DNA of 64,000 nucleotides from Tubulanus polymorphus (lineage: Eukaryota; Animalia; Nemertea), in NCBI RefSeq assembly GCF_964204645.1, contig NC_134032.1, forward strand, positions 3,496,175-3,560,174. The letters run 5' to 3'. Under the pieces are notes generated by a model. It ran no database searches and was not told the origin of the DNA. It saw nothing but the letters and a program-made list of their open reading frames with translations. The translations under genes were made by a program, and so were the position numbers. Each line of letters begins with the position of its first letter. Within the stretch, counting starts at the first letter, position 1. Of the stretch, positions 38,301-60,774 are shown one piece after another.

Positions 38301-38887
38301 CTAAGTCCTTAGTCTGAATGAAATGTATGTGGTATTATATGGGTGCTATGGTGCTGTACACCGAACTGTAACTTTTTATTTTCACTACTACCGTAATCGA
38401 CTATGATGTTTTCAAGTGGTCTTAAGTACCGCTAATAGCCGAAAGTCGTTGATTTATGTGAAATTTACATACAGCGCCATCCGTTGGTAGTAAAACTAAC
38501 CCGAGCAGTACGGGTGTTAAATAGATACGCTAGCAAACCGGCATTCTCATAATGGTGAAATACCAACTGCGCACCCCTCGACGGAGAAACCCATCCTCAT
38601 CGGAGCTGCACCGTCGATGTCATACAACTACACTTCGGATACCCCTGAGGACCATACTCTCATCTGGAAAATTTGCGTCTCGAAATGTGCTTCCTTTCTA
38701 TCTAGTCAACACGCGGGATCATCAACTAAGAGAACTTCTACATCATTACCCGAAAAAAATAACTAAAATAAACGATCGGACTATTTACACGTAGAAAACG
38801 ACCAAAAAAATAAAAAAATGGACGAAATGATCTTCAACCTTGTAATAGACGGACGCCGGGCGCCGAAGGCACCCGGAGGATGTCCCT

Positions 38888-41695: not shown

Positions 41696-43218
41696 AAACT
41701 TACAGTTACAGAGTTACAGTTTCATCTTCTTTCTTCCCACCCCTTAACTCGAGCATTAATTTTAAATTTTCCAAGTTTTGACTAAGAATTGATTTAATTT
41801 CTTCATTAATTCATTGCTTTGGGTTCAACTACAGTACAATTTCAATATGAAATATTGGAGTTGATTCTCTTTCCAGTTTCATTAACAACATTTAAGTGTG
41901 CTCCTTGTCACTGACAATATTTTGAGTGTTTTCGACTTCGTTACCCCGTACTTGAGGTTGTTTTCCCCCATCGCTATCATTTCTTACTATGAAAAATTGA
42001 ATCAAGCTGTGACGAGGCGTCCGTCACTTAGATTTCATCTATTACATATTATCATATTATGTAGTACAGCTTATTTTTTGCGACAGCGCCACGGCGCTGG
42101 AGCATATTAACCATCTGGTGTCTTCCAATACCACCACCTAGTGGGCTCAAATTCAAGTTCAAATATACTTTATTGATACTCATCAAATATACTTAATTGT
42201 TACTTTATTCAATACTTTATTGTTCCCAGTACTGCAAATACATCAGATTTCTGCAATTAAGTAGAAAGAACACAAATAAAATTAAGAATCTTTTAGTATT
42301 CAGAAAACAACGTACAAGTTATTTTTCAATTTTAATTAGCAATGAGATATTTTTTTTGCGACGCTCACGCATTCCCTTTCTGGAAGGCAGATCGGCTATT
42401 CCCTGAAAAATTAATCGCTGAATCGACGTCCCGCTAATGATGAAAACTATCTTTAGATCCCCTGATTTCAAAATTCAAAAATATAGATTTATATGAACCT
42501 TAGGTCTACCTTGTAATTAACAAATTATTCGAAAGCAAAGATCTTGCATTCGAGTTAATTCATTTTAAGCAGTTTCTTTATTTCAAGCCCCGGATTGATT
42601 GTCTAAATCTCTTTGCTCTTCTCATGACTTGTATTCAATTAAATTTTCTATTCTCATTCTACAATTTGTACGTGAATACTATCAACGGTAGCATTTCTTT
42701 CTTTTCATTTTGTTTTTCATAATGATTTTGTAATATTTAAATCTTCATTTTATCGTGACGGGTGTTTCCGCTTTTAAACTGTTAGTTTATTACTTCCGAT
42801 TTTTTAATCTTCATTAATTTATTCATTCTTTATTACTTCTCTCTCCAAAATCGGAATAATTGTATCCTTAGACGCTTTTGATCTTGATTTTTAATGACTT
42901 TGCAAAACCACCTGTTGCAGTATATTTCCTTTTAGAAATATACCTTGTCTCCCTCTCTTATGCTGCAACCACCATGACACGTAGACACAAATATATCTGT
43001 TGATAATAATATCAAGACAGCGTTTCTTGTGTTCATCATAACCTAGAGGAAACCATCACATAATCCATATATCTAACGTACGTACATACACACCGCAGTG
43101 CATGGCATTCACGTATAACCGCGCGTTGCACTACTGCGCTCTCCTAGCGCGTACTATAAATACTGTCATACGCTGTCTGTTCGTTTAAGACGTTTTTAAT
43201 TGAAATAAGCTTTATTAG

Positions 43219-43487
43219 GAGTAATAGGGATAATGGGCTTTCAGGCCAAAGGTCGAACGGTCGAGCTCGTAAAAAATGAAAAACATAAAAATAATAACAA
43301 TTTCTACTTGAATTACTCGCGAAACTCATAAAAATGAAAAATAAATTCTCACACGCTCGAATTTATTTTTCATTTTCATGAGTTTCACTCCTAATTCAAG
43401 TAGAAATTGTTATTATTTTTATGTTTTTCATTTTTACTCACCCGCCCGTTCAACCTTTAGCTTGAAAGCCCATTATCCCTATTACTC
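43219..43487. repeat. 269-bp imperfect terminal hairpin
   Basis: gagtaatagggataatgggctttcagg...ataaattc [tcacacgctc] gaatttat...gaaagcccattatccctattactc. Confidence 0.93.
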
Positions 43488-43568
43488 TTAAAATATTCAT
43501 ATATATATGAATAACATTTAAATCATTGAACTTCTAAAATCAATTTTAATAAAAAATATAGTATTAAA

Positions 43569-46500
43569 ATGGAAGCAAATAAGTACTACTGCCCAACATG
43601 TAATATCGATATAGACAAATCTCAAAAAGCAAGACACAATAAAACTATAACACATTTAGAGAATAAATTGAAACTAGAATATAAGGATGATATATTAGAA
43701 ACTAAATTAGAAGAATTAAAGAATGAAAAGGAAACATATAAATGTGATACATGTAATCAATCATTCAGTGATAAAAGATATTATAAAGAACATTTAAAAT
43801 CTATAAGTCATATTAGAAATAAGAATAATGATATTTTAGGTGAAGATTATTTTGATAATGATAACGATAAGAAACAGAAGACAATTAAAAGAATAAAAAA
43901 TAAATTAAACAATAAAAGACCATATATGGAAGATGTAAGAAATTATATTAATTCATTAGATAATAAAAAAGATATAGAGATAACCGAAGCATTTAAAAGT
44001 GATATTGGTCCAGCAGCTATCGAGTTTAAATTTCATAAAGGAAAAACATTAGAAGAAAATAAAAAATATTTAGAAAATATGAAAGAAATAATAAAAATAA
44101 TAACTGATGTTGAATATCCTAAAATTAGTATATCAGTTAAAGTAAAGTTTATAAAATCTGAAGATAAACCAATATATAATATAAATTCTCATTCACAACA
44201 TATTATATCTAAACAACATATAGATGATAAATTAAATAAATGTTATAATGAAATAAAAACTAAAATAGAAGAGAAATATTTTGAAGGATCTGGTTTAATA
44301 TTTGATGAGATAATATTTATAACTTTACATGTTTATAACACAAAATATAATAAGTTAACTAAATCAAAACCAATTGATGAAAATAATTTATCATATTATA
44401 AAGATGATAGTATAAATGGAACAAGTTATATTAAACTACCATTTAAAACTAATGGTGTAATAAATATACAAAATTTTGATAACAAATATTTTATATGGGC
44501 TATAATAAGTTGTTTACATCCAGTTGAAGATTATAATAAACATACTTATAGATTAACTCATTATAAACAATTTGAAAATAATTATAAGATAGATAAGTAT
44601 CCTGTTAGAATTAAAAACATTCCCAAAATAGAAAGAGATAATAATTTAAAGATAAATATATTTGATTTAATTAAATTACCAAATACAAAAGGAAATAATA
44701 TTAAACATTATACATTAGAACCTTTATATCTATCAAAAGATTATGATTCAAATGATGTTATAGATATACTATATTATGAGAATCATTATATGTGGATTAA
44801 ACAAATAGATTTATTTTTCAAATCAGAAAATGATCACCATAAAATATATCTATGTAGAAAATGTTTACATAGATTCAGTAATGAAAGTACATTATTAAAT
44901 CATAAACGACTATGTGATAATCATGATTATTGTAAATTAGTTTTACCAAATGAAAAAGATAAAATATTAGAATTCAAAAAATATGATTACAAAAATAAAG
45001 TACCATTTGTAATATATGGAGATTTTGAATCATTAAATAAAGAACTAACTGATCAAGATAGAAAAGAAATATATTATAAAAGAAAGAAATTAAATTCTAA
45101 TGAAAATGATTTTTCAGATGAACCACCAATAACAAATACTATTAAAAAGATTCATCAATCAGCTGCTGCTTTCGGGTTATATATAAAATCTGATTATCCA
45201 GAACTAATTGAAAGTGAATATTATCATTATAGAAATGAAAATGTTATCAATCATTTTTGTGACTTATTAATTGAATATGAAATAAGATTTAGTAAATTAT
45301 TGAATACAAATAAAGAAATAATTATGACAGAAGAAGATAAAGAAGCATTTGAGTTTGCAGATAAATGTTATTATTGTGAAAAGATATTTAATTATAAAGA
45401 TAAAAAAGTAAGAGACCATGATCATTTGAATGGAAAGTTTAGAGGCGCTGCACATGAGAATTGTAATTTGCAAGCCAAAAAAGTAAATTTTGTCCCCATT
45501 ATATTTCACAATTTATCGAGGTATGACGCGCATTTATTCATTAAGCAACTGTGTCATAAAATAGAAGAAATTAATAATGAAATAGAAATATTAAATTCAA
45601 ATAAATCAAAAGATAAAATACCAACTTATAAATTTAGAATGTTAGCTAAAACATCTGAGAATTATATATCATTCCAATTTGGTTGTCTAAGATTTATAGA
45701 TTCTTATAGATTTCTAGCAAGTTCATTAGATAATTTATCAAAATCATTAGTTGATGATGAATTAAAGATATTAAAAGAATATTACCCAAATTATGATGAT
45801 TTTAAATTAATGAGATATAAAGGTGCAATTCCATATTCTTTCTATAAAAATCATAATGATTTTAAAATAACTGAATTATTGAAAGAACAATTCTATGATG
45901 AATTAAAAAATGAATATGTTAAAGATGAAGTTTATAATAGAACATTGAATATTTGGAATCATTTCAAAATAGAAAATCATGGACAATTAGTAGATTTATA
46001 TTTAAAATCAGATGTATTATTATTAACCGATATATTCGAAAGGTTTAGAGATGTAAACCTAAAATATTTTAATATTGATCCTTGTCATTGTTATTCATCA
46101 CCAGGATTAACATGGGATTGTGGATTAAAATTTACAAATATAAAAATGGATTTGTTAACAAATATAGATCAATTACTATTATTTGAAAAATCTATAAGAG
46201 GAGGAGTTTCAGGTGTATTGGGTGATAGATATTTCAATATAAATGATAATCCTGGATATAAATTATTATACATAGATGCAAATAATCTTTATGGTTGGGC
46301 AATGATGGAACCACAACCTTATGGGATGTTTGAAATAACTGAAGTTTTACAAATTGATAAATTTGATTGGAAGAAAAGAATCCTAGATATTGCAGATGAT
46401 TCAGATACTGGTTACTTCTTTGTTGTAGATTTAGAATACCCTGAAAATATCAAATTCAAATCTAGAAATCTAGCATATTGTCCCGAACATAAAACTGTTA

Positions 46501-47600
46501 AACATGAAGAATTATCAAATTATCAAAAAAGAATTAAACTTGATAATCATATTCATACTGAAAAGTTAATGGTAACTCAAGAAGATAAATATAATTATGT
46601 AGTACATTATAGAATGTTGAAGTTTTATTTGAATCAAGGAATGATATTTAAAAAAGTACATAGATATATTTCATTTAATCAATCTAAGTGGTTAGAAAAA
46701 TATATAGATTTTAATACTACACAGAGAACTGAAGCTAAAACTGATTTTGAGAAGGATTACTTTAAACTAATGAACAATGCGTTCTATGGAAAAACATGTG
46801 AAAATATTAGAAATAGAAATGATATTGAGTTAGTTAGTAATGGTAAAAGAATTAGACATTTGCAATCGTATCCGAAATTCAAAGGTAATAGAATATTCGA
46901 TGAAAATTTAGCTGCAGTTAAATTAAAAAGAACTTCTATGAAGTTCAATAAACCTATTTATGTTGGAGCTGCAGTTTTAGAAATTTCAAAGCTATTGATG
47001 TATGAATTCTATTATAATGTATTGCAACCCCATTTTGGGGAAAAACATATAGAAATTCTATACTTTGATACAGATTCTTACATATTAAAGATAAAAAGTG
47101 ATAATATAAAAGATGATTTAAAAATATTAAATCATCATTTTGATTTCAGTAACTATCCAAAAAATCATGAATTGTTTAGCAATGATAATAAAAAAGTTCC
47201 TGGGAAGTTTAAGGATGAATTAGGTGGTGAAGAAATGATAGAGTTCATAGGTATTAGATCTAAAATGTATTCATATAAAACTAAAGAACATGAAGCTAAA
47301 AAGTTAAAAGGAATAACCAAAAGTGTAGTAGAAAAGAATATTCATTTCAAAGATTACATCAATTGTATATTTAATGAAGAAGTTAGAAAACATAAGATGA
47401 AATGTTTAAGATCTGAAGATCATGAAATGTATATTGAAGAGATAGAGAAGATAAGTCTAAACCCATTTGATGATAAAAGATATATTTTAGATGATGGAAT
47501 CCACACAGTCGCCTATGGTTGCAATTTAGATGAATATATAAAATTCAAAAGAGAAGAAACAAAAGAAAATGAGATTATGAAAAGGATTCTAACGTGTTAA
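43569..47600 (+). CDS. polB: Protein-primed family B DNA polymerase with N-terminal C2H2 zinc fingers, terminal-protein/vOTU-like region and EndoVII-like insertion
   Basis: ExoI YGDFES, ExoII FHNLSRYD, ExoIII YLKSDV; polymerase motifs YIDANNLYG, KLMNNAFYGK, YFDTDS; CYYC..VRDHDH..G.FRGAAH..CN; EGSG motif. Confidence 0.97.
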   Translation: MEANKYYCPTCNIDIDKSQKARHNKTITHLENKLKLEYKDDILETKLEELKNEKETYKCDTCNQSFSDKRYYKEHLKSISHIRNKNNDILGEDYFDNDNDKKQKTIKRIKNKLNNKRPYMEDVRNYINSLDNKKDIEITEAFKSDIGPAAIEFKFHKGKTLEENKKYLENMKEIIKIITDVEYPKISISVKVKFIKSEDKPIYNINSHSQHIISKQHIDDKLNKCYNEIKTKIEEKYFEGSGLIFDEIIFITLHVYNTKYNKLTKSKPIDENNLSYYKDDSINGTSYIKLPFKTNGVINIQNFDNKYFIWAIISCLHPVEDYNKHTYRLTHYKQFENNYKIDKYPVRIKNIPKIERDNNLKINIFDLIKLPNTKGNNIKHYTLEPLYLSKDYDSNDVIDILYYENHYMWIKQIDLFFKSENDHHKIYLCRKCLHRFSNESTLLNHKRLCDNHDYCKLVLPNEKDKILEFKKYDYKNKVPFVIYGDFESLNKELTDQDRKEIYYKRKKLNSNENDFSDEPPITNTIKKIHQSAAAFGLYIKSDYPELIESEYYHYRNENVINHFCDLLIEYEIRFSKLLNTNKEIIMTEEDKEAFEFADKCYYCEKIFNYKDKKVRDHDHLNGKFRGAAHENCNLQAKKVNFVPIIFHNLSRYDAHLFIKQLCHKIEEINNEIEILNSNKSKDKIPTYKFRMLAKTSENYISFQFGCLRFIDSYRFLASSLDNLSKSLVDDELKILKEYYPNYDDFKLMRYKGAIPYSFYKNHNDFKITELLKEQFYDELKNEYVKDEVYNRTLNIWNHFKIENHGQLVDLYLKSDVLLLTDIFERFRDVNLKYFNIDPCHCYSSPGLTWDCGLKFTNIKMDLLTNIDQLLLFEKSIRGGVSGVLGDRYFNINDNPGYKLLYIDANNLYGWAMMEPQPYGMFEITEVLQIDKFDWKKRILDIADDSDTGYFFVVDLEYPENIKFKSRNLAYCPEHKTVKHEELSNYQKRIKLDNHIHTEKLMVTQEDKYNYVVHYRMLKFYLNQGMIFKKVHRYISFNQSKWLEKYIDFNTTQRTEAKTDFEKDYFKLMNNAFYGKTCENIRNRNDIELVSNGKRIRHLQSYPKFKGNRIFDENLAAVKLKRTSMKFNKPIYVGAAVLEISKLLMYEFYYNVLQPHFGEKHIEILYFDTDSYILKIKSDNIKDDLKILNHHFDFSNYPKNHELFSNDNKKVPGKFKDELGGEEMIEFIGIRSKMYSYKTKEHEAKKLKGITKSVVEKNIHFKDYINCIFNEEVRKHKMKCLRSEDHEMYIEEIEKISLNPFDDKRYILDDGIHTVAYGCNLDEYIKFKREETKENEIMKRILTC

Positions 47601-47628
47601 TCAATTTCAATAAAAATTTGTATAATAA

Positions 47629-47970
47629 ATGGAGAGTAAACAAGTACACAGTGAATTCTTAGATAGAATTAAAGATACTTCAAGCGTCAAATCTGTAGAT
47701 TATAAATTCAAAAAGTTAACAGAATTAACAATTCACAAGAAATATTTAATTACTAACATTGAAACAATTACTAATAGATATGGAGATAAATTAGTAATTC
47801 ATTTAGAATATGAAGGATTAAAAGGAAATAAATATAAATTCAGAACTTATTTACCAGATAGATTTCATAGATTATCAAGTGAAGATCTAGAAGAATTATG
47901 TTCTGGAGATTTCTATTTCGTATACAAAGGTAAGAATGAAAAAGGGCACCATGAAATAGATTTCGAATAA
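47629..47970 (+). CDS. Polinton hypothetical protein, 113 aa
   Basis: Intact ORF in the gene block with a TAAATG start. Confidence 0.7.
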   Translation: MESKQVHSEFLDRIKDTSSVKSVDYKFKKLTELTIHKKYLITNIETITNRYGDKLVIHLEYEGLKGNKYKFRTYLPDRFHRLSSEDLEELCSGDFYFVYKGKNEKGHHEIDFE

Positions 47971-47987
47971 GAAAATATGTAAAATAA

Positions 47988-48746
47988 ATGGCGGAATTAA
48001 AAGAATATAGAATATTTGTTGATTCTAGAAAACTTACAAATTATAAATCTCATAATTTATTAGTACAATTAGATAGAGAATTCAAGAATTGTGTTGATTT
48101 AAAATTAGTAAATATAAGTTTATGTAATTCTTTTTATAATATATCGAATAAAACTATTGAACATAATACTTTTTTAATTCATATTAGAAATATAAATAAA
48201 TGGTTTCATCTATTTCTAAGACCAGGATTATATAATTTAGAAACATTATCTCAAGAAATTAATCGTAGAGCACGGTTGAAAATTAGAAAAGATGATAAAT
48301 TTTTAATAAGATTTATAAAAAGTGATAGCTCAAATAGAATTAAAATAAAGGTATTTGATGAAAGTCAACATGCATTTATGGTAAAAAAACCTATAGCTAA
48401 ATTGCTAGGAATTGAACCAGATGTTGTTACAGTAAACGTAGAAGGTATTTCAAATATAATACCTTTTACACATTTTTATATTTATTGCAATTTAATTGAC
48501 CCAACAAAAACATTCGAAGCAACTAAAGATACAACATGTAATTCTAGTATATTAAATATTTTACCATTAAAAAATGTTAAAGAATTTGGAACGCAAATAA
48601 ATTATAATTTAACAGAATGTGATTTCAAACCTTGTATTCCTAAATTTAATAATTTTAGATTAGAAATTAGAAATCATAATGGATACTTAATTGATTTAAA
48701 TAATTTCCCTGTAATTTATGAATTAGTTATAAGATGTAGAGAGTAA
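47988..48746 (+). CDS. Putative minor capsid (penton) protein
   Basis: Size and pattern typical of Polinton/PLV pentons: IFVDSR at the N-terminus, L..ISL.NSFYNI, GLYNLETL, FYIYCNLI, C-terminal FRLEIRN.NG.LIDLN...V.YELVI. Confidence 0.68.
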   Translation: MAELKEYRIFVDSRKLTNYKSHNLLVQLDREFKNCVDLKLVNISLCNSFYNISNKTIEHNTFLIHIRNINKWFHLFLRPGLYNLETLSQEINRRARLKIRKDDKFLIRFIKSDSSNRIKIKVFDESQHAFMVKKPIAKLLGIEPDVVTVNVEGISNIIPFTHFYIYCNLIDPTKTFEATKDTTCNSSILNILPLKNVKEFGTQINYNLTECDFKPCIPKFNNFRLEIRNHNGYLIDLNNFPVIYELVIRCRE

Positions 48747-48763
48747 TTTTTTTCACTATATAA

Positions 48764-49105
48764 ATGAATATAACTGTTGGACCGAGTATATGTTTTGGGT
48801 TTGATTTTAAACATGGTAAAGAAATGAGAATTAAACTAAATGATGTAATTACTGATATAAAAAGTAAATCATTTAACAATGCATCAATGATTGATAAAGA
48901 AAAGTATAATATAGAAAAAGTAATTGATTTAATTAAATCACCTTTAGAATATTATGAATTAAATGAAGATGGAATTATTGAAGATATCAAAAACATATTA
49001 TCCAAAATATATGATAATCATAAAAGTAGTAATGAAATAAATGTTGAATTAATCATAAATAAGTTAACTAAATATTTTGATGATAGTAATTTTTTTGATA
49101 AATAA
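48764..49105 (+). CDS. Polinton hypothetical protein, 113 aa
   Basis: Intact ORF with T7-N7-TAAATG start. Confidence 0.7.
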   Translation: MNITVGPSICFGFDFKHGKEMRIKLNDVITDIKSKSFNNASMIDKEKYNIEKVIDLIKSPLEYYELNEDGIIEDIKNILSKIYDNHKSSNEINVELIINKLTKYFDDSNFFDK

Positions 49106-49327
49106 ATGAGTGATAATAAGTGGATAATAACTGGATTATATAATGGCGCATTACTATCAGTTGGAACTGTTGGTTATTCAATGGTATTAAAAAAAGTATT
49201 CAAAATGGGAAGTGTTAATGTTGATAGATTTGATATCAATGATATTTTAAAATTAACGTTAGCAGTTACTTTATCTAATTTAACTATTGATTATTTGGAA
49301 AAACAAAAATATATTCCTCCCATATAA
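49106..49327 (+). CDS. Small hydrophobic (membrane) protein, 73 aa
   Basis: Two hydrophobic segments; T7-N6-TAAATG start. Confidence 0.7.
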   Translation: MSDNKWIITGLYNGALLSVGTVGYSMVLKKVFKMGSVNVDRFDINDILKLTLAVTLSNLTIDYLEKQKYIPPI

Positions 49328-49352
49328 ATGTATAATTTTTTTTGTTAAATAA

Positions 49353-49775
49353 ATGGCTTCTGCAATTATAACTATTATAGGATCAGCAATTGTTAACGCT
49401 TTAGCATTTACTGGTGGTGGTTATTTATTTAAACATATTGATAAAAATAGTTCATTAGGAGAACAAAGAAGACATAACTTAGCGTTAGAGAAATACAATA
49501 AAGCTGCAGAAGAATATAGAGAAATGAGACAAAACTATATGGATTACATCAATAAAGAATTATATGATCAGAAGATTTCACATAGAGATTTTCAATCAGT
49601 TGATGATGCAATGAGTTTATATAACGCAGTAACCAATAAAGAAAAATTACATCTATACAAACCTAAATTATCAGATTATTATACCCCAAGTAAAGAACAA
49701 CAGAAATATGAAATAATATGGATTTTAGGTGGAACTGTTATTGTTATATTTGTTGCTTATAAGTTTACTAATTAG
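49353..49775 (+). CDS. Membrane protein with N- and C-terminal hydrophobic helices, 140 aa
   Basis: MASAIITIIGSAIVNALAFTGGGYLF ... coiled region ... IIWILGGTVIVIFVAYKF. Confidence 0.75.
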   Translation: MASAIITIIGSAIVNALAFTGGGYLFKHIDKNSSLGEQRRHNLALEKYNKAAEEYREMRQNYMDYINKELYDQKISHRDFQSVDDAMSLYNAVTNKEKLHLYKPKLSDYYTPSKEQQKYEIIWILGGTVIVIFVAYKFTN

Positions 49776-49794
49776 TAATTTTTATTCTAAATAA

Positions 49795-50229
49795 ATGGAA
49801 GATAAAGTTGATAGTATTGATATTATTCCTCATGATATAAATAAAACTAAATTAAAAACATATTTAGAAAAACAAATATTAGAATTTGAAAGTGACTTAA
49901 AGATAAAAAAGAAAAAATATTTAAAAAGTAAAATTATATATTATTTGATTATAAGTGGTTCAGTTACAATTAGTTCTGTAATAACATTTTTAGCAATATT
50001 CAGTCCATTAACACCTTTAGCTATATCAATTGGTGTATTAGGATTAAGTTCAAGTGTTTTAACCGGTATAAGTTCAAAATTAAATATAAAAAGTAATAAA
50101 GAAAAAATCAAAACTAATATAAAAGAAATTAATAAATTAAAGAACACACTAGATTATATAATAAGTTTAAATGGCCATATAACAGTTGAAGAACAAGATA
50201 AATTATTAAAAGAATTAATAAATTATTAA
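49795..50229 (+). CDS. Two-TM membrane protein, 144 aa
   Basis: Hydrophobic hairpin IIYYLIISGSVTISSVITFLAIF / LAISIGVLGLSSSVLTGI flanked by basic coiled segments. Confidence 0.72.
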   Translation: MEDKVDSIDIIPHDINKTKLKTYLEKQILEFESDLKIKKKKYLKSKIIYYLIISGSVTISSVITFLAIFSPLTPLAISIGVLGLSSSVLTGISSKLNIKSNKEKIKTNIKEINKLKNTLDYIISLNGHITVEEQDKLLKELINY

Positions 50230-50246
50230 TTTTTTTAGTTATATAA

Positions 50247-51460
50247 ATGGTAGATAGTTTTCCAAAAACTTTCCGATATAATAAATCAATTAAATATAAT
50301 ATTCCAGCAATAGATTTTAATAATGATATTACATATAGAAATGAAGTTTTAGATTCATTAACTAATTTAGAAATTTATGTTACTGAAACTAATAATTTTA
50401 ATGCAAAGATGGAAAATATATTTCATGTATATTTGATTAATTTTAAAAAATTGAAAGATGAAAAACAATGGTTATTAAAATCTAATATGAAGTATTGGCA
50501 GAACCAATTAAATTTTGCTGTTTATTGTGCAACAACAGGTTGTGGAATTAGTTGGAATGATCATTTGAATAATTCTAAATATAAATAAGAACAAAAATTG
50601 GAACAATAAGATCACTTCCATGCCCTAAAAAGATTGCAGAATATTGTGCACTTCCCATACCATCTAATAGTTTTTATAATATCTATAATAAAAAATTAGG
50701 TTATGGTAAAATAGAAACAAAGGATTTAGAAACATTAAATTTCAATAAATTACCAAAATTTTATGATAATTTAAAACAAGAAAACAATAATGGTTGGGTT
50801 TATTTTATTTAAGAAAATAGTGAAGGTTTTACTAAATCAGGTATAGAAAGAATAAATCAATCTATTAGAACTTATTTGATTTGTATTCTAGGATCACAAG
50901 TTGAAACAAGATCGCCGATAATTGGAAATTTGAATACATCATTCGATACACAAAAACAATTTAAAGTTTTATTTGAAGATTCCATACATAATGATAAAAA
51001 TAGATCGATTCCAGAAAACATTATAAGATATCAAAATTATTTAGATAAATCTCATGTAAGACTAAATTATTGTATAGGCCCTAATCTATTAATTATTTCT
51101 AATGATTTAGTATTAAAGATGGGAAACATAATTGGTTATAATAATCTAATTAAAACTGCAACAATAAATAATTCATTTGGATTAAATGATATAAATAAAA
51201 AGATTATTACTGCTCCAAAATCAAAGGAAGGTGAAAAAAATAAAAAACACATTTAATCAACAGAAACTAAAACTAAGAATATTAAATTAAATAATGATTC
51301 CAAAATAAAAGATTACAAAACATCAGAAAATATAAAAACTGATAAAATTCAACATGATATAATTAAAACTGATAATGATAATAAATCACATGAAAATACT
51401 AAATTAGCTATAACTTGTATAGGAATTGTAATCGGAGGAATATTATATTTTAAATTTTAA
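50247..51460 (+). pseudogene. Disrupted Polinton gene with C-terminal TM
   Basis: Fragments 50247-50588, ~50590-51256 (different frame, TAA at 50810-50812) and a tail after an A-run frameshift ending KLAITCIGIVIGGILYFKF*; only the first fragment has the conserved start motif. Confidence 0.72.
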
Positions 51461-51476
51461 TTTTTTTATTATGTAA

Positions 51477-52943
51477 ATGGATGTAGAAGGTGGAGAAGAT
51501 ATTCCATTGGATGACATGGGAAATGATAATGAAGGATATATTGATAATGATTATAATGATGCAGAAACTAATATTGATAATGATGATGAATCAGCATATA
51601 ATTCTAATTTAGCAGATAGTGGTTCTAAAGCCCCATCAACAGATGAATTTGATAGAAGAACTAGATCGAGAATAAATCCTGAAAATGAAAATCCAGATTT
51701 AGTAAAACAAAATTTAGAATATAATGAATTTATGTATGATTTTCAACATGTATTTAAAGATTCTGGATATAATATAAATACCAGAGGCGCTAGACTTTTA
51801 GTACAAGAATTAAAGTTTTTAGATGGTGAATATTATTATCGTTTGAAAGATGATTATTATATTGATATCTCTTATAAAAAACAAAACAAAATATTAGCAG
51901 AATCAACTTTGCTTAAGTCTGACTCATTACTATCTAGAATTAAAAGAATAAGAAATAGTAATGAAATAGAAGATGTAACACAAGAAGAAATTATTAAAAA
52001 TGAAAGAGTATTTAAACAAAGAATTAATGAATTATTTGAAACAATCGATAATAATTTAGAAACAGAAACAACTTCTGAACAGAATATAACTTCCAAAACT
52101 AGTAAACTTAAATCAAACACTGAAGTTCAAACTGAAAAACTTTTACCGAATGGATTACTTGATGCAACAGATCAAGAAATAGAAGCTTTAAGTATGTTTT
52201 CTAAAAAAACAATTAGAGAAATAATAAGTATACGAAATGATGCCGATAAAATTGCTCGCGAAAAACATATTAGATATAATAAAATTAAACCTTTAGAAAA
52301 TAAATTATTTGACACCAGAAAAGAATTAGAACAATTAAAATTAGATAGAGAATTTAAAGTTATTGAAGAAATTGAATTTAAAAAAAGAAATGCATATTTA
52401 GAAAAAGAAATTGATGATTTAGAATATAACATAGAATTTCAGAAAGAAAAAATGAAATTATTATTAAAATCATATGATTATTGTATTAATAGATTAAAAG
52501 TTGTTGTTAAAGAGTTAATACTAAAACCAAATTCTGACATATCACTAAAAGATAGAATAAAATTATTATTTAAGTTTGAAGGAATAACAGTTCTTTCAAT
52601 TCTAACAGCTGTAACTATGTTATTTACAACAATTGGTTTAGCAATATCAAATGCTTTGAAATCTACTCCTACTCCCAATAAACCAGATAAACCTCCAGGT
52701 AATAATTCTATACAAGATAAAGTTAAAGATGGTTTAAAGAAATTAGCAAAATATTTATGGGAACTATCTAAAAAATCTGCTGCAGCTTTCCCAGGAGTTA
52801 TTGCTTCAATTGTTGGTTTTATATTGAAATCTGCAGGAAACATTATTAACTTTGCTGCTGAACATATTATTTTATTTTTAATCACAGTTGTAATTGCTAT
52901 TATTTTTGGTTTAGTAAATATGATATCAAAAAATATCAAGTAA
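51477..52943 (+). CDS. Acidic/coiled-coil protein with C-terminal membrane helices, 488 aa (candidate membrane-active virion protein)
   Basis: Acidic N-terminus (EDIPLDDM), long coiled coil, then ITVLSILTAVTMLFTTIGLAI, a Pro linker, amphipathic helices and a terminal TM. Confidence 0.75.
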   Translation: MDVEGGEDIPLDDMGNDNEGYIDNDYNDAETNIDNDDESAYNSNLADSGSKAPSTDEFDRRTRSRINPENENPDLVKQNLEYNEFMYDFQHVFKDSGYNINTRGARLLVQELKFLDGEYYYRLKDDYYIDISYKKQNKILAESTLLKSDSLLSRIKRIRNSNEIEDVTQEEIIKNERVFKQRINELFETIDNNLETETTSEQNITSKTSKLKSNTEVQTEKLLPNGLLDATDQEIEALSMFSKKTIREIISIRNDADKIAREKHIRYNKIKPLENKLFDTRKELEQLKLDREFKVIEEIEFKKRNAYLEKEIDDLEYNIEFQKEKMKLLLKSYDYCINRLKVVVKELILKPNSDISLKDRIKLLFKFEGITVLSILTAVTMLFTTIGLAISNALKSTPTPNKPDKPPGNNSIQDKVKDGLKKLAKYLWELSKKSAAAFPGVIASIVGFILKSAGNIINFAAEHIILFLITVVIAIIFGLVNMISKNIK

Positions 52944-52986
52944 ACTATGATATCAAAAATAAATAATTAATTTTTTTGTTAAATAA

Positions 52987-54234
52987 ATGAGTGGGAGTTA
53001 TATCAATCCTTCTAAGAATCATAGAATATCTAATGCTATTAAAGCAGAAAGATCACATCATATAATTACTCATAACCCTTCTAATATCAATCCCGATGAA
53101 ACTTTATACGTTAGAATCCCTCGATTAACACAAAATACTTTTTATGTTCCAAACTGTATTTATTTATCAGCTGATATAAAAGTAATCGGTAATAATAATA
53201 ATTATGTTGTTGATAATGTTGGAAGATATTTGATTAAAAAGTTAACAATAAAGATTGGTCCAGAAACAGTTTTCTCATTAGATGATTATAATTTATTTAT
53301 GCATTATAAAGATTTATGGTTAACAAAAGAAAATAGAAATAATATGATATTTCAAGGCATCCAATCAGAAAACCAAAATAAATTAAGATCAGAAGCTAAT
53401 AGCGCAATATTAACAAATGATGTAGATAAATTGATAAAAAGTATATATGGAAGCAAATATAAAATTCCATTAGACTTTGAATTGATAAATAATAATGCAC
53501 CTTTATATAAATACGCAATTCAAGAAGATGTTATATTCGAAATAACATTTGCTCCTGTAAATGAAATTGTAATATCTAGCGTTAATAAAGATATGAGTTA
53601 TAAATTATCGAATATATGTTTAGAATATGATACAGTAACTGATGAAAATATTTCAAGTATAATTCAAACTCAATACAATCAAGGATTTTCATTATTATAT
53701 GATTATATTGATAAATTTAAAACTGTAACTATTAATGCAAATGATGAAATAATAAATGAGAATATTAACTTTCCTAGAAGATCTATTAAAGGTATATTAA
53801 TATTTTTTACTATTGGAACGTATACTAATGGCGCAATAAATGTTGACAATTATTATAATCCTGAAATAACAAAAGTAGAAATAACTATCGAAGGTATAGC
53901 GAATAAAATATTTTGTCAAGGAATGAGAATGATTGATCAATGGGTAGAAATTAAAAAACATTTTATGAATGAAAAAGTAAAATCATTTGAAAATTGTAAC
54001 ATTAATCAAATTGATTATTATACCGGTAATAAATATGCATTATGGGTAGATTTTAGAACAACTGAAGATAATTCATTACATGGTTCTGGAAAAAAACTAC
54101 AAAATACAAAAGATGGAATACAATTATTCATGACAAAGAAAAAAGGAATCAAAAATTTTAAAATGCATATTTATATTATATCTGACGCACAATTAAATAT
54201 TATAAATTCACAATTAGATAGTGTTATGTATTAA
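52987..54234 (+). CDS. Putative major capsid protein (double jelly-roll), 415 aa
   Basis: Size, beta-rich pattern and motifs (NPSNINPDETLYVRIP, VDNVGRYLIKKL.I, ALWVDFR..D..LHGSG, HIYIISDAQLNI) match MCP-type ORFs of invertebrate Polintons as recalled; not verified by search. Confidence 0.75.
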   Translation: MSGSYINPSKNHRISNAIKAERSHHIITHNPSNINPDETLYVRIPRLTQNTFYVPNCIYLSADIKVIGNNNNYVVDNVGRYLIKKLTIKIGPETVFSLDDYNLFMHYKDLWLTKENRNNMIFQGIQSENQNKLRSEANSAILTNDVDKLIKSIYGSKYKIPLDFELINNNAPLYKYAIQEDVIFEITFAPVNEIVISSVNKDMSYKLSNICLEYDTVTDENISSIIQTQYNQGFSLLYDYIDKFKTVTINANDEIINENINFPRRSIKGILIFFTIGTYTNGAINVDNYYNPEITKVEITIEGIANKIFCQGMRMIDQWVEIKKHFMNEKVKSFENCNINQIDYYTGNKYALWVDFRTTEDNSLHGSGKKLQNTKDGIQLFMTKKKGIKNFKMHIYIISDAQLNIINSQLDSVMY

Positions 54235-54266
54235 AATTTTAACTTTAATAAAAATGTATATAATAA

Positions 54267-55145
54267 ATGGAAGGAGGTAAAGTATATAAACATATTCCAT
54301 ACATCGATACACATGAAAATAATGATGGTTTATATTATGTAATACCTTGTAATATAGCTTTGATATTTGATCCTATTTTTAAAAATTATAAAACTAAACT
54401 AATAGAAATCGATAATAATAAAAGTGAAGTTGTTGATAATTTAAGTAATGTAATTGATAATAATGTAATACCTTCTACATCTAATAACGTAATACCTTCT
54501 ACATCTAAAAATGTAATACCTTCTACATCTAATAACATAATACCTTCTACATCTGTAATACCCTCTACATCAAATAATATAATACCTTCTACATATAATA
54601 ATGCAATAATATTAAATGTTAGTGAAAATAGAAATTATTGTGATTATTGTAATGGTGAATTTTCAAACGCTCCATCAAATTGGAATAAACATATGAATAC
54701 AAATTCACATATTACTAATGTTATAGAACGTGTTGGTAAAAAAGAATTTATAGAACACCCATTTAGATATGTTACAAAATTTGTTTCAAATAAAAAAGTA
54801 AATGGTGAAAAAATATATGAAGATTTATTATTAGCAACACCTAATAAAGATGAATTAGATTTAACCGATGCTAATGAAATATTAGGATCAAACACTGTAA
54901 ATGAAATATTAGGATCAAACACTAATAAAGATGATAATGAAAATGGTGTCATACGCCCACATGATGATATAGTTACAGTTAAACATATTGATAATAAAGA
55001 TTCTATAAAACTTAAAGTAGAAAATAATAATAAATTTGATTGGAAGAATAAGTTTAAAAATGAAACAACTATTGATGATTTAGTAAAAAATATGAAAAAG
55101 GTAAAAAAAGGTGAAAAAGGTGAAAAAGGTGAAAAAAAATTATAA
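54267..55145 (+). CDS. Hypothetical protein with (V/I)IPSTSNN repeats and a C2H2-like zinc finger
   Basis: Six IPST repeats (~54463-54600); CDYC-x12-H-x5-H; probable A-run frameshift near 55135 with an acidic tail continuing to ~55223. Confidence 0.7.
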   Translation: MEGGKVYKHIPYIDTHENNDGLYYVIPCNIALIFDPIFKNYKTKLIEIDNNKSEVVDNLSNVIDNNVIPSTSNNVIPSTSKNVIPSTSNNIIPSTSVIPSTSNNIIPSTYNNAIILNVSENRNYCDYCNGEFSNAPSNWNKHMNTNSHITNVIERVGKKEFIEHPFRYVTKFVSNKKVNGEKIYEDLLLATPNKDELDLTDANEILGSNTVNEILGSNTNKDDNENGVIRPHDDIVTVKHIDNKDSIKLKVENNNKFDWKNKFKNETTIDDLVKNMKKVKKGEKGEKGEKKL

Positions 55146-55304
55146 AGATATTGAAGAAGATTCGGTAGAGCATTTAAATAAATTGTTAGCGTCTTATAGT
55201 GAAAGTGATTCAGAAATTGATTAACTAAAACTCGAATAATAAAGGTTGAAAATTGTATAAAATAATAGTAAATAAAAAAGGGGGTTTAAATTATTTAAGG
55301 TATC

Positions 55305-55362
55305 TAATAGGGTATCAGGTATTAGGGTATCAGGTATTAGGGTATCAGGTATTAGGGTATCT
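55305..55362. repeat. 15-bp tandem repeat between the convergent gene blocks
   Basis: (tagggtatcaggtat) x ~4. Confidence 0.85.
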
Positions 55363-55383
55363 AATACATAGGTATACAAATAG

Positions 55384-55995
55384 TTATTTTATAAATATAT
55401 ATTCATAAGGAAATTGTAATCTCAGTAATAATTTTGAACCTTTATTATTCTTTAATTTATTCATATATTCATCATGTAATTCAGTAGGTATAATTTGATT
55501 TTCTTCCAATGATTGTTGCATAGATTTTCTATCTTTGTTGTAGAAAAAAACTAGAAATCTTATATTCTCTCTAAAATCTTTCACAATTGAATTATATTTC
55601 TGATTCAAAACCCAAGTTGTTATCCCAAAATGTCTACCAGAGAAAGCTAAATAACATAACTCACTTTCTCTAATTTTAGAATCATGTAAATTTGCGCAAT
55701 CATCAATAATAAATAATGTATTTGATCCTTTATAAATATCTAATGCAATTTTTATACAATTATCTAAATTTTCTTTTACTGTTTTAGGATTTAATATAAT
55801 AAACTTTTTTATCTTAACTATATCTCTATTATATGTTTTATTCATTTCATAAGTAGGACAGAATAATATTATATTATCAAAATGATTTTTATAAATAGTT
55901 TCTAATAAATCTAATATGAAGTGTGTTTTACCGCAGTTTGTAACTCCAGTTATTAACATATTATGCGGTTCAAATATAAATAAATCTTTATTCAT
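55384..55995 (-). CDS. A32-like (FtsK/HerA) genome packaging ATPase
   Basis: Walker A GVTNCGKT, Walker B FIIDD, GRHFGI..W...Q.Y motif. Confidence 0.93.
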   Translation of the reverse strand: MNKDLFIFEPHNMLITGVTNCGKTHFILDLLETIYKNHFDNIILFCPTYEMNKTYNRDIVKIKKFIILNPKTVKENLDNCIKIALDIYKGSNTLFIIDDCANLHDSKIRESELCYLAFSGRHFGITTWVLNQKYNSIVKDFRENIRFLVFFYNKDRKSMQQSLEENQIIPTELHDEYMNKLKNNKGSKLLLRLQFPYEYIFIK

Positions 55996-57076
55996 TTATT
56001 CTTTTAATTTTACTAGATAAAATCCATTCATTAAATTTATCATCATATCCTTTATATTTCACCAAAGAATACTTTTTTCCTTTAAGAGTTTTTGTTTTCA
56101 ATACTTTTTCTATTTTGTATTCTATTTCATCTGGATTTGGTACTAATGATAATTCTTGTTCATAAAAATAACCTAATATTTCTTCATCTTTTAAATCAAA
56201 CAATTTATAAACAAAAGGTTTAGTTAATATTATCTTTTTAATCTTGAATATTTCTTCAGTAAAATTAGGGGTATAACCTTTATAAAATGTTTTTCGATAT
56301 TTAGAAATTCTAACATGTTGTCCTATTTTAAATTTAGGTTCACCGAAATCATGTGTAACAAATGCTCCATATAAATTATTCCAAACTATTTCTGAATTTT
56401 CTTCTTTTCTAGCTTGTATAGGTTTCATATTTATAGAACTATGTTTAGAATTATTATAACCTTTAACTAAATCATCTAACACATCGATATATTTATATGT
56501 TTCATTAGCAGTAAAATATTTCCACATTCTAGTTTTCAATGTTTTATTAAATCTTTCTATAACAGATGCTTTTTTATCTGAATGTGTTGAAAAATATTCT
56601 ACATCGTTATCAGTTAATAGTTTTTTAAAATGTTTGTTATAAAATTCTTTACCTTCATCAAATTGTATCTTATCTGGGATAGCTTCTTTAAATATAGATT
56701 TAAAAGCATTTGTTACTTCTATACCAGTTTTATTTTTAATCGGGATACTCCATGCGTATCTACTGAATATATCTATAACATTCAGTATCCAGAAATATCC
56801 TTTGTTATATTCTTCTAAGTTTTTCATGTCAATTAAATCTGCTTGCCATTGTTGGTCAATATATGAAACCATTACTTTTCTTGTTAAATATTTTTTATCC
56901 ATCTTTTTATGAATTTGATATGTGGGTTGATTTTGTAACCATGATTTTAATTCACTATATTTTATATTGCTATTATCAGATTTAATTTTATTCCATAATT
57001 CTGAAACGTTAGAATATGATACTTCACTTTCTGGGTTATAATATAAATCTCTTAAATATTGTTCTTTTTTCATCAT
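55988..57076 (-). CDS. int: Retroviral-like (rve) DDE integrase with C-terminal chromodomain
   Basis: WQADLID, IDIFSRYAW, QFDEGKEF, ASVIERFNKTLK; chromodomain YKIEKVL...LVKYKGYDDKFNEWI. Confidence 0.96.
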   Translation of the reverse strand: MMKKEQYLRDLYYNPESEVSYSNVSELWNKIKSDNSNIKYSELKSWLQNQPTYQIHKKMDKKYLTRKVMVSYIDQQWQADLIDMKNLEEYNKGYFWILNVIDIFSRYAWSIPIKNKTGIEVTNAFKSIFKEAIPDKIQFDEGKEFYNKHFKKLLTDNDVEYFSTHSDKKASVIERFNKTLKTRMWKYFTANETYKYIDVLDDLVKGYNNSKHSSINMKPIQARKEENSEIVWNNLYGAFVTHDFGEPKFKIGQHVRISKYRKTFYKGYTPNFTEEIFKIKKIILTKPFVYKLFDLKDEEILGYFYEQELSLVPNPDEIEYKIEKVLKTKTLKGKKYSLVKYKGYDDKFNEWILSSKIKRINE

Positions 57077-57079
57077 ATT

Positions 57080-57475
57080 TTAATCCATTAATAATATTTT
57101 AGATTTATTTTCATTTGATTTATGATTTGACTTATTTTCTGGTATAATAGGTTTATTGTCATCGGAATCATCTTTATCATCAGATTTGAATTTAGATTTA
57201 TATATTACACCAGATAATATAATAACTGTTACTAATCCAATTGTAATATATAATTTATAATTACTTCCAGCATTAGAAGAATTAGATGGATTATTATTTG
57301 AATCAATACCACCGTGTGGGTGCCGTACGGCATCATCAGATAAAGTCTGTGATTCATTTATATCAGTTAATTTCTTTTTCTTAGCTTTTTTTAATTCTGA
57401 TGATCTTTTACCTAATTCTCTTGCCCATTTAATTTGTTTCTCGGATCTAGCCTTTTTCTTAACGCCATCGCTCAT
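57080..57475 (-). CDS. Single-TM protein with basic N-terminus, 131 aa
   Basis: Lys/Arg-rich N-terminus and LYITIGLVTVIILSGVIY helix; TAAATG start. Confidence 0.7.
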   Translation of the reverse strand: MSDGVKKKARSEKQIKWARELGKRSSELKKAKKKKLTDINESQTLSDDAVRHPHGGIDSNNNPSNSSNAGSNYKLYITIGLVTVIILSGVIYKSKFKSDDKDDSDDNKPIIPENKSNHKSNENKSKILLMD

Positions 57476-58073
57476 TTATCTTAGTTAATTTTTGTTCTGA
57501 TTCATCTTCTATTTCGATGTTTTGTTGTAGTACATCTGTTTCGTTCTTACCTGATTTATATTCCATAGGTTTGATATTCGAAAATGTTATAACTCCAGTA
57601 GAAATCAATGTCATAACCGATCCTAATTGAAATGAAGCATATCCAACCCATTTTTGTAATTCAGTCATAACTAAATAGTCATTTTTCAAATCATTATATA
57701 ATTTATTTTCATCATCAATTGGTATTAGCCGGTTACATAATTTTGAATAACATTTGATAATACCATCTGAAATAGAATCATTTATTCTAGCTAATCTTGA
57801 CTCTTCATAAATCTTAAAATATTTAATTACTTTTTCTTTGTTCATATTATCTAATTCTTGAAAAGTTATTGTTTTACCAATAAACTCTTTAGTTTTTCCA
57901 CTCGCAATCAATAGTTCTAGATGATGCTTACAATATAAATAGTATTCATAATCAATATTACTATCAATTTTATTATCACATTTAGTTGCCACATTATCAT
58001 TATCATCTGTTAGACCTAAATCTTCCAAAGTTTTTTCAACTTTAACATTATTCTTATTCGATTTCTTAGACAT
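57459..58073 (-). CDS. Polinton hypothetical protein, 204 aa
   Basis: Intact ORF with TAAATG start and a hydrophobic segment near the C-terminus. Confidence 0.72.
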   Translation of the reverse strand: MSKKSNKNNVKVEKTLEDLGLTDDNDNVATKCDNKIDSNIDYEYYLYCKHHLELLIASGKTKEFIGKTITFQELDNMNKEKVIKYFKIYEESRLARINDSISDGIIKCYSKLCNRLIPIDDENKLYNDLKNDYLVMTELQKWVGYASFQLGSVMTLISTGVITFSNIKPMEYKSGKNETDVLQQNIEIEDESEQKLTKINERWR

Positions 58074-58298
58074 TTATATTAGAGAAATTTAATAAGAATA
58101 GTATTATAAGTATTCTTCAAATGATACTAGCTAGTTAAAGTTAAAGAATTCTAGTATTAGTTATTGTTTTTTTAGTATTTTTTATTTGTGATATAAAGTA
58201 TTCTCTTTTGAAAAGAAAATATTAAAAATTAAAATAGAAATAATAGATAGTTGAAGGTATGTAATTTTTATTATATTTTATTTGAGATATATTAATCT

Positions 58299-58976
58299 TT
58301 AACCACTCATTAAAGACTCAACGTATTGTTCATTATTTGGATTATTATTCCATTGATCAATAAATTTCTTTGCTTTTGTTAACTGTTCTAAATATAACTG
58401 TAAATCTAGTTTGTTTCCTTTACTAATATTTTCTTTCTTTTCGAGTGGTCTCAGGTTCTTCCAATTCCATATCAATTTCTTATTGTGTTCATCATTCATG
58501 TTAAATTTAGAAATAGGCAACACGTGATCTATATGGAAATAATCTCCGTAATTATTTGTGTTCATTTCATCATCGAACTGATATGTAATCCATGATTTTA
58601 AGAATTTATCTGAACAATCTAACAAATTAGATAGTGTGGTTAAATGCGTTTCATTACTAAATAATTGTGATAATCTAGTATTTAAACATTGTTTTATTTT
58701 AAAATTAAAATCTGTTTGATACCTTTTCTTTCGATAATTATTTTGATACTCATTATAATATTCACGATGATCTTCTCGATAATCTGGATTATTTTCTTGC
58801 CATTGTTTATTAACCACTTTTTTACAACTTTTACAGTAATTTTGTAAACCATCTTTCTGAGTATTATTTTTTTGAAAATCTGAAGATTGTTTAATTAATT
58901 CACATTTAGAACATTTCTTATATATATTTATAACACCATTATTGTTTATATTTATAGTGTGTGGTTGTTGTTCCAT
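58299..58976 (-). CDS. HNH endonuclease with N-terminal Cys4 zinc ribbon
   Basis: KKCSKC...F....KDG....CKSC; C-terminal HIDHVLP.SKF...NWKNLRPL...EN.SKGNK. Confidence 0.85.
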   Translation of the reverse strand: MEQQPHTININNNGVINIYKKCSKCELIKQSSDFQKNNTQKDGLQNYCKSCKKVVNKQWQENNPDYREDHREYYNEYQNNYRKKRYQTDFNFKIKQCLNTRLSQLFSNETHLTTLSNLLDCSDKFLKSWITYQFDDEMNTNNYGDYFHIDHVLPISKFNMNDEHNKKLIWNWKNLRPLEKKENISKGNKLDLQLYLEQLTKAKKFIDQWNNNPNNEQYVESLMSG

Positions 58977-59117
58977 TTATATTACATATTTTTTACTAAA
59001 ACTGATTTATTTTTGTTTGAAATCTATGTGCTTCTCTTTTTCATTCCTTGTTCTTTTTCATTCCTCGCCACCGTAGTTGATAAATCATTTCGGATCTTTG
59101 ATATCAAAATCATACAA

Positions 59118-59430
59118 GCAGCCGGCCATTTGTGGCCGGTTTTGCTTAATGCGCATGCGTTAATCATAATTATAAATTCATTCTATAAATTATGTAAAAT
59201 AGAAACAACACATGTGTTACATGCGTCACATGCGGCCATTTATGGCCGGTTTTGCTTAATGCGTATGTGTTAAACATAATTGTATATTCATTCTATAAAT
59301 TCTGTAAAATAGAAACAACTGAACATAGAAAATTCAAACGCATTCATGTCTGCGTCACATGCGTTACATGTGTCACATGCGGCCATTTATGGCCGGTTTT
59401 GCTTAATGCGCATGCGTTAATCATAATAGA
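59118..59430. repeat. Three dispersed ~50-bp palindrome-containing repeats in the Polinton non-coding region
   Basis: cggccattt(a/g)tggccggttttgcttaatgcg(c/t)atg(c/t)gttaa(t/a)cataat at ~59123, ~59233, ~59380. Confidence 0.88.
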
Positions 59431-60569: not shown

Positions 60570-60774
60570 AAATGTGTTATAGTTTTATTGTGTCTTGCTT
60601 TTTGAGACTTATCTATATCGATATTACATGTTGGGCAGTAGTACTTATTTGCTTCCATTTTAATACTATATTTTTTATTAAAATTGATTTTAGAAGTTCA
60701 ATGATTTATATTTTATTCATATATATATGAATATTTTAAGAGTAATAGGGATAATAGGCTTTCAGGCTAAAGGT
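60570..60774 (-). repeat. Right terminal inverted repeat of the Polinton (truncated within the hairpin)
   Basis: Reverse complement of 43453-43657 with a few mismatches; includes the pPolB start and first zinc finger; breaks off 35 bp into the hairpin arm. Confidence 0.93.

Follow-up and report, generated by a model that had tools for sequence, protein, structure and literature searches.

An integrated polinton-like virus in a nemertean chromosome

The stretch of DNA analysed here, called the window below, comprises 64,000 nucleotides of the nemertean Tubulanus polymorphus (contig NC_134032.1, positions 3,496,175 to 3,560,174). Within the animal DNA of the window lies a 24% GC island, a polinton-like virus element that spans window positions 43220 to ~60774 and belongs to a multi-copy family; the limits given in a preliminary description of this DNA, 47600..58990, were too narrow. 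The element has 16 open reading frames (ORFs), listed here with the letters at their starts. Negative numbers are positions relative to the A of the ATG, and T-type or A-type denotes a T-rich or A-rich core upstream.

43569..47600, plus strand: protein-primed family B DNA polymerase (pPolB), 1343 aa, with a zinc finger and an endonuclease VII-like domain (Endonuclease_7, E 5e-5, just under the cut-off); A-type upstream, TAAA at -4
47629..47970, plus strand: 113 aa, likely single-stranded DNA binding protein (SSB; weak match to Phi29 SSB, score 0.85, family on 44% of members); TAAATG, A-type
47988..48746, plus strand: 252 aa, candidate minor capsid protein, family in 22 loci; TAAATG, A-type
48764..49105, plus strand: 113 aa protein, its N-terminus similar by eye to one in the related locus L004; TAAATG, T-type
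49106..49327, plus strand: small hydrophobic protein, 73 aa; TAAATG, its TAA being the upstream stop; T-type
49353..49775, plus strand: 140 aa protein with hydrophobic ends; TAAATG, T-type
49795..50229, plus strand: membrane protein, 144 aa, weak SLATT-like match; TAAATG, T-type
50247..51460, plus strand: conserved protein of ~440 aa, broken in this copy, with a hydrophobic helix at its C-terminus; TAAATG, T-type
51477..52943, plus strand: coiled, membrane-associated protein, 488 aa, family in 42 loci; TAAATG, T-type
52987..54234, plus strand: double jelly-roll major capsid protein, 415 aa, model pLDDT 89; TAAATG, T-type
54267..55145, plus strand: zinc-finger protein, 292 aa, weak zf-U1 match; TAAATG, A-type
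55384..55995, minus strand: A32-like packaging ATPase (Pox_A32, E 5e-12); its TAAATG lies inside the end of the integrase frame
55988..57076, minus strand: rve integrase (PF00665, E 2e-9) with chromodomain (Chromo, E 8e-5); TAAA at -6
57080..57475, minus strand: membrane protein, 131 aa; TAAATG
57459..58073, minus strand: conserved 204 aa protein, family in 43 loci; TAAATG
58299..58976, minus strand: 225 aa, likely HNH-type nuclease (weak PDB match to a type II endonuclease, E 0.046); TAAATG, A-type

The 1343-aa ORF did not match a Pfam polymerase family, and we take it to be pPolB from three family B polymerase motifs recognised by eye. The minor capsid label of the 252-aa protein is presumed from resemblance (Pfam and PDB gave no match), as is the HNH label of the 225-aa protein. 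The best Foldseek match of the capsid model was to PBCV-1 capsid chains (E 2e-18). When the intact L004 orthologue was compared by tblastn with the gene at 50247, it aligned as two pieces in different frames (50247-50570 and 50681-51445). This ~440-aa membrane-anchored family occurs in 25 loci, and the L004 protein (2996-4321) was modelled with pLDDT 78; neither it nor the 204-aa family had a clear fold or family match. A database search gave no homologue of the 48764 protein.

In a Pfam scan of the 16 ORFs neither an RNA polymerase nor a capping enzyme nor a TBP was recognisable, and TFIIB had no match among them. Nor was a protease family found in the 16 ORFs at E 0.05, a very divergent one being possible among those that are unassigned. 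A viral collection had no relative of the capsid protein or pPolB and gave two weak matches to the ATPase.

A two-part signal at gene starts

According to the preliminary description, 14 of the 16 gene starts are TAAATG, and all 14 that it listed do read so. The same six letters occur at 43 of the 696 other ATGs of the element on both strands (6.2%; binomial p = 1.3e-15). The two remaining starts, those of pPolB and the integrase, keep TAAA nearby. The seven consecutive genes 48764-52987 all match TAA-T(5-8)-N(6-8)-TAAATG, as had been claimed, and the A-rich block described ahead of pPolB, 47629, 47988, 54267 and 58976 is present. The leading TAA is not an independent letter of the motif, since for 48764, 50247 and 51477, three of the seven, it doubles as the upstream frame's stop codon.

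A new feature is a T at precisely position -12, found in 14/14 TAAATG starts with either type of core and in 19/43 non-start TAAATG (Fisher P = 1e-4, 17 positions tested). As this T is common to A-type and T-type starts, there is one two-part signal, in which an A-rich or T-rich core with T at -12 is followed by TAAATG.

Genes on the same strand are mostly separated by 17-43 nt, about the length of one such promoter. A TATA box 20-40 nt upstream is absent from 15 of the 16 genes, and no conserved box is found there. Overlap of stop and start codons was ruled out as the cause of the motif, because the upstream stop is used by only one of the 14 TAAATG. Furthermore, in five relatives of the element back-to-back TAAATG starts lie 19-30 nt apart and the first genes of such pairs carry the signal; for those genes, coupling of a stop to a start is thereby excluded, and ordinary polymerase II leaders would have no room.

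Conservation of the signal in one clade

A capsid search gave 175 proteins, and an alignment of 67 sequences retrieved the best 80 of 233 confirmed metagenome loci. ORFs in these relatives were called by first ATG and families shared between loci were scored. Left out of the counts were seven further loci from genome bins, two duplicates (L030 and L046), two fragmentary capsids, the downstream parts of split genes and any start < 45 nt from a contig end. Loci L117-L123 sit in bacterial and archaeal genome bins and are likely to be misbinned animal DNA. In a quick maximum-likelihood tree of 56 capsid rows the window falls into a single clade together with L001-L010 (SH-aLRT 99); L036 and L070, with partial capsids, were assigned to this clade by identity. 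Capsid identity to these 12 clade relatives is 49-77%, their GC content 0.20-0.44 and their gene order shuffled.

TAAATG was found at 58/63 starts of the clade, and at 45/48 in the 12 relatives without the window, over a background of 4.9%. It was found at 0/28 starts in the nearest other lineages, 0/47 in an AT-rich distant clade and 2/242 in a GC-rich distant clade, and the counts were unchanged when any ATG in the first 30 codons was allowed. AT content was thus ruled out as the cause by the AT-rich sister lineages, which share the element's genes (0/47 and 0/28): sister elements at 26-31% GC are without the signal, whereas L006 at 44% GC has it at 3/4 starts. Kozak bias predicts A at -3, as seen in 37/47 AT-rich sister starts, whereas 58/63 clade starts have T at this position, so Kozak bias was also ruled out. 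T at -12 holds across the clade (54/58, compared with 41/118 non-start TAAATG). The integrase, one of the two exceptions in the window, starts with TAAATG in L001 and L004. A cargo deoxynucleoside kinase gene in L004 (10343-10981, minus strand) has the same T-run and TAAATG; relatives of this kinase were considered as pointers to a helper virus and do not point to one. Outside the window's clade, the long-branch loci L075 and L079 have TAAATG at 9/10 starts, a lead to either a second origin or the ancestral state, the tree position of the two being unsure.

The nearest lineages without TAAATG (L011, L040, L045, L052, L056, L062 and L067) have TATA within 14 nt of the ATG at 19/27 starts (background 9%), together with a T-rich stretch 10-15 nt upstream. 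The pattern is less marked in the distant clade (clade B), with TATA near the ATG at 22/46 starts in its AT-rich part and 12/225 in its GC-rich part, and it is not exclusive to the sisters, as it also occurs at 30/63 starts of the TAAATG clade. The late promoter of swine fever virus is described as TA(+1)TA with a median 5' untranslated region (UTR) of 9 nt (PMC7163114; PMC5294985). The sister-lineage sequences resemble it and, as a lead, suggest an asfarvirus-like TATA initiator and promoter codes that are specific to the helper.

Other candidate signatures were rejected. AATAAA is not depleted in the element (65 compared with 70 expected; 18 AATAAA lie within the pPolB frame), but AT-rich clade B is also undepleted, so AATAAA load does not set the clade apart from it. 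Avoidance of the early terminator TTTTTNT (low in clade relatives, 17 vs 39, but only 7 vs 11 in the window) was discarded, and T5-N-T relative to T5-N-V is no rarer in the clade than expected. CpG is 0.54 in the element and 1.0-1.1 in the flanks, but this low level is matched by codon shuffles in the window.

Resemblance to poxvirus promoters

In vaccinia late promoters TAAAT(G) is described as overlapping the start codon and a T ~10 nt upstream as conserved (PMC11980589), and intermediate genes are described as having TAAA and an AT-rich core (PMC11980589, PMC5294985, PMC12917281). TAAA is recognised by the viral polymerase itself, from -1 to +3 (PMC12917281), and slippage at a TAAA-type initiator yields poly(A) leaders (PMC6211774). 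The element is similar to both vaccinia promoter classes in its TAAAT(G) on the start codon, its T-rich stretch ~10 nt upstream and its AT-rich core. It differs in that its T at -12 is sharper and its A-type core ends ~10 nt before TAAA, compared with the 12-bp spacer of vaccinia intermediate promoters.

For a direct comparison, 36 poxvirus-type loci of 20 kb each were fetched with a polymerase motif. Among the 26 that are AT-rich, TAAATG is the predominant start in 10 of 19 conserved families. The upstream T profiles of the clade and these 10 families correlate with r = 0.78 when in register; shifting by one base lowers r to 0.61 and 0.38, and larger shifts give ≤ 0.34. None of 2000 shuffles reached 0.78, and the 21 starts of the distant clade members alone gave the same value. 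The T-rich element ~10 nt upstream thus has a fixed spacing, within one base of the poxvirus peak.

Proposed transcription by a helper virus

We propose, with a probability of roughly 65%, that this integrated polinton-like virus relies on a cytoplasmic virus of pox type, infecting the same cell, whose post-replicative RNA polymerase system would transcribe its genes. There is precedent in virophages, the genes of which depend on promoters of their helper (PMC11464507). The preliminary description had already suggested pox-type helper transcription; its promoter part is strengthened, since AT content, Kozak bias and stop-start coupling are ruled out and the spacing fits poxvirus loci, while helper dependence itself is something we infer. 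The helper polymerase would initiate at the first A of TAAAT, slip and add a poly(A) leader, which would stand in for the missing 5' UTR and make up for the poor context that T at -3 provides. The genome would be copied in the helper's factory by pPolB and the likely SSB, and the capsid protein, ATPase and membrane proteins would package it. The rve-chromodomain integrase would then insert the genome into host chromosomes, including those of the germ line. How a nuclear copy might meet a cytoplasmic polymerase is a matter for guesses, open mitosis and excision at the terminal palindromes being two.

Several points weigh against this proposal. Neither transcripts nor their start sites nor sequences of a helper were observed, and poxvirus-derived genes were not found in the element or its clade; clade ORFs had no match among the ORFs of the 36 poxvirus loci, each covering only 20 kb. 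Coral polintoviruses, of a clade not matched to that of the window, are reported to be expressed in ordinary tissue (PMC11131425). The loci of the clade are akin rather than independent samples, so the P values overstate independence, and the starts are uncurated first ATGs. The T peak of poxviruses, taken from only 10 families, is broader (70% at -13 and 64% at -12, compared with 93% at -12 in the element), and in two poxvirus loci that are further removed the peak is at -13 and at -15. AT-rich clade B also correlates with the poxvirus profile (r = 0.47), and the window alone gives r = 0.55. Lastly, A-type or T-type core is not kept for each gene, as the 113-aa, 252-aa and 225-aa families switch between relatives. 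This bears on the two temporal classes of the preliminary description. The capsid gene is mostly T-type among relatives and the 292-aa family is A-type in 3/3, but three families switch and, in back-to-back pairs, one gene's T-run is the other's A-run, which is one reason why core type is a weak guide to timing. A division into intermediate and late classes is therefore weakly supported by these sequences, and the inducible and possibly protective character suggested in the same description gains no support from them.

Among other explanations, a cytoplasmic, virus-like polymerase that is not of pox type would be unlikely, though it is the one to take most seriously; it could belong to an unstudied asfarvirus or egovirus relative, or to a linear-plasmid-type element with its own RNA polymerase using a TAAA initiator. 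The TAAAN initiator is indeed also used, with slippage, by the polymerase of yeast linear plasmids (PMC6211774), and the asfarvirus-like TATA initiator of the sister lineages makes the pool of helpers look wider than poxviruses. In addition, a search of the viral collection with an RNA polymerase motif gave 38 matches, all of which lack identifiers of metagenome style (as judged from the form of the identifiers). However, TAAAT fused to the start codon with an upstream T is the late pattern of poxviruses, and the swine fever virus initiator described above, with its median 9-nt UTR, is a different one. Somewhat less probable is that the promoters are a relic of a helper-dependent ancestor and that present copies spread in the nucleus, the host transcribing only pPolB and the integrase. 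These are the only window genes without TAAATG, both copies of the element in the window are damaged and most mapped reads are 90-99% alike. On the other hand, both genes retain TAAA within 6 nt, the integrase has TAAATG in two relatives, the signal is retained before structural genes across deep divergence and the two window copies differ preferentially at third codon positions (65:34:28).

Host polymerase II might instead be redirected by an element-encoded factor, such as the 292-aa zinc-finger protein, to make nearly leaderless transcripts. Several element genes have no assigned function, but the 16 ORFs have no TBP or TFIIB match, no box is conserved 20-40 nt upstream, T at -3 is a poor context unless a leader is added and 18 AATAAA lie inside the pPolB frame (although the undepleted AATAAA total is shared with AT-rich clade B); we regard this as improbable, marginally more so than a relic. 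That the motif arose incidentally, from AT-rich composition, close packing of genes and coupled stops and starts on polycistronic RNA, has been largely refuted and is very improbable. The element is tightly packed at 24% GC, and stop codons account for three of the seven leading TAA, but only one TAAATG of 14 uses an upstream stop, first genes of back-to-back pairs carry TAAATG, sisters at 26-31% GC are without the signal and L006 keeps it at 44% GC.

Relationship to known elements

The features of Polintons/Mavericks in the broad sense are present: a protein-primed family B polymerase (by its motifs), rve integrase, terminal inverted repeats, double jelly-roll capsid protein and A32-like ATPase. 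The repeats are of Polinton type with AG(T) ends (205 nt, 97%; left AGTAAT). With Maverick/Polinton groups 1 and 2 (Polintoviricetes) the element shares pPolB, rve integrase, A32-like ATPase, double jelly-roll capsid and repeats starting AGT, and its relative L121 has the 6-bp duplication; the element differs in having no detected protease, several membrane proteins, long terminal palindromes and the promoter signal. An adintovirus capsid ranks 29th in the capsid fold search. As no protease was detected in the 16 ORFs, the element would fall outside groups 1 and 2.

Mavirus is an integrating virus with pPolB and rve integrase and without RNA polymerase, a gene set to which that of the element is similar. 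Mavirus and the endogenous mavirus-like elements of Cafeteria are also alike in having a promoter motif matched to the helper and clades that differ in this motif, as described in bioRxiv 10.1101/2025.10.09.676808. The element differs in its animal host, its pox-type signal (compared with TCTA of CroV) and the absence of a detected cysteine protease. The mavirus capsid ranks 48th in the fold search, and virophage capsids rank below those of giant viruses. Features of a virophage lifestyle are the lack of a detected RNA polymerase or capping enzyme of its own in the 16 ORFs and promoters that are of poxvirus type by sequence. The element is thus provirophage-like as judged by its promoter, yet not a member of the virophages proper (Virophaviricetes), since no protease was found and virophage capsids rank low.

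Small polinton-like viruses, one of them integrated in a beetle chromosome, have been proposed as parasites of entomopoxviruses by Barth et al. 2024 (PMC11296320), a link that, as described there, rests on co-purification and shared genes. These have an adenovirus-type protease and no rve integrase, whereas the window element has an rve integrase and no detected protease; it is not one of them. The yeast cytoplasmic linear plasmids pGKL1/2 are protein-primed linear DNA and are not known to have a capsid or integrase. They are described as having a TAAAN initiator, poly(A) leaders, their own polymerase and capping enzyme and an upstream conserved sequence (PMC6211774); the element is alike in its TAAA-type initiator, but neither enzyme was detected in it. 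By published descriptions, the candidate placement of the element is probably in an animal lineage outside groups 1 and 2, near PgVV/Aquintoviricetes (Polinton-3_NV type; PMC11296320, bioRxiv 10.64898/2026.06.19.733378).

A literature search, the scope of which was outside subscription journals and supplements, gave no report of pox-type promoters in a Polinton and nothing relevant on poxviruses of non-insect invertebrates. In the main text of PMC11296320, supplements being outside that scope, promoter, motif and TAAAT do not occur, and the word 'promoter' is not in the available text of bioRxiv 10.64898/2026.06.19.733378, 10.64898/2026.10.13.758929, PMC11131425, 10.1101/697771 or 10.1101/2024.03.23.586382.

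Ends, copies and surroundings of the element

The surroundings and ends of the element include the following features.

1715-2518, 11694-12650, 22827-23180: two long rhodopsin-type G protein-coupled receptor frames and a CUB exon, which mark the surrounding DNA as animal
43215..43491: left terminal near-perfect palindrome (self-BLAST and DNA fold); the element starts AGTAAT at 43220
43453..43657, plus strand: portion of the left terminal inverted repeat that pairs with the right end, 205 nt, 97% complementary to 60570-60774; contains the first 89 nt of pPolB
60570..60774, minus strand: right terminal inverted repeat, cut off ~40 nt inside the arm of the palindrome

The left end was set by reads of X6, a DNA run of the same species label, placed on 42300-55090 only: 425 + 1677 reads have dissimilar letters before 43219/43220 (agreement 0.34-0.35). 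As ~2100 reads run into dissimilar sequence at 43220, the family has many insertion sites. A target-site duplication was not established for the window element, while L121 has one of 6 bp; a 6-mer at 61124 identical to the left flank was considered and is probably due to chance. Part of the right repeat (60570-60658, minus strand) duplicates, facing inward, the region upstream of pPolB together with the first codons of this gene. With its truncated right end and broken gene at 50247, the window copy is damaged.

Long near-perfect palindromes (130-280 nt) lie at or near the ends of several copies and relatives: 43215-43491 and 15376-15568 in the window, 290-465 and 15249-15432 in L121, 3795-3973 in L119 and 15573-15701 in L120. 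L121, which starts AGTAGT, has a palindrome at both ends. Hairpin-forming ends are not expected of a protein-primed element. One guess is that the endonuclease VII-like domain, by cutting cruciforms at the ends, might serve excision. A vaccinia-type resolution motif was not found at the left end.

A second, truncated copy of the element's left end lies at 15376-17946, with 94% identity over 2.2 kb and in-frame stops in pPolB; the frame that follows it is similar to a retroelement C-terminus and has no Pfam match. Joints within reads reveal other copies, in which pPolB is skipped or the 113-aa gene is placed ahead of pPolB (43546-47627; 47970-43535), and the upstream regions of pPolB and 47629 are alike. 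In run X1, summed contig depth on the element (42300-55090) is roughly 100 times that of the flank; the ratio is ~5-40 in X2 and X3 and ~3-10 for reads of X6, depth not being a copy number. The excess in X1 is a lead for free, amplified copies of the element. An 83-kb record is listed for the same run. The right non-coding region has three related GC-richer units with short palindromes (59123-59427), with no match among the fetched relatives. Outside the element, 31622-38554 forms a 7-kb inverted repeat structure without a long ORF, its arms 96-100% complementary.

Implications

It has long been asked whether the Polintons of animals form particles at all and what activates them, and a pox-type promoter makes helper dependence directly and cheaply testable. 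If the proposed dependence is true, it would be the first promoter-level link, in the literature searched, between a polinton-like virus and poxviruses, helper-matched provirophages would extend from protists to animal germ lines, and integrated elements would become sequence-readable pointers to unknown large viruses. A broader and more tentative idea, which we hold to be somewhat short of even odds, is that an entire family of animal polinton-like viruses are germ-line provirophages and that the promoter of each lineage names its helper, TAAATG with T at -12 a poxvirus and a TATA initiator 4-13 nt before the ATG an asfarvirus-like virus. If so, the clade of the window would imply that invertebrates other than insects have poxviruses still to be discovered, and possibly that animals inherit a defence triggered by viruses.

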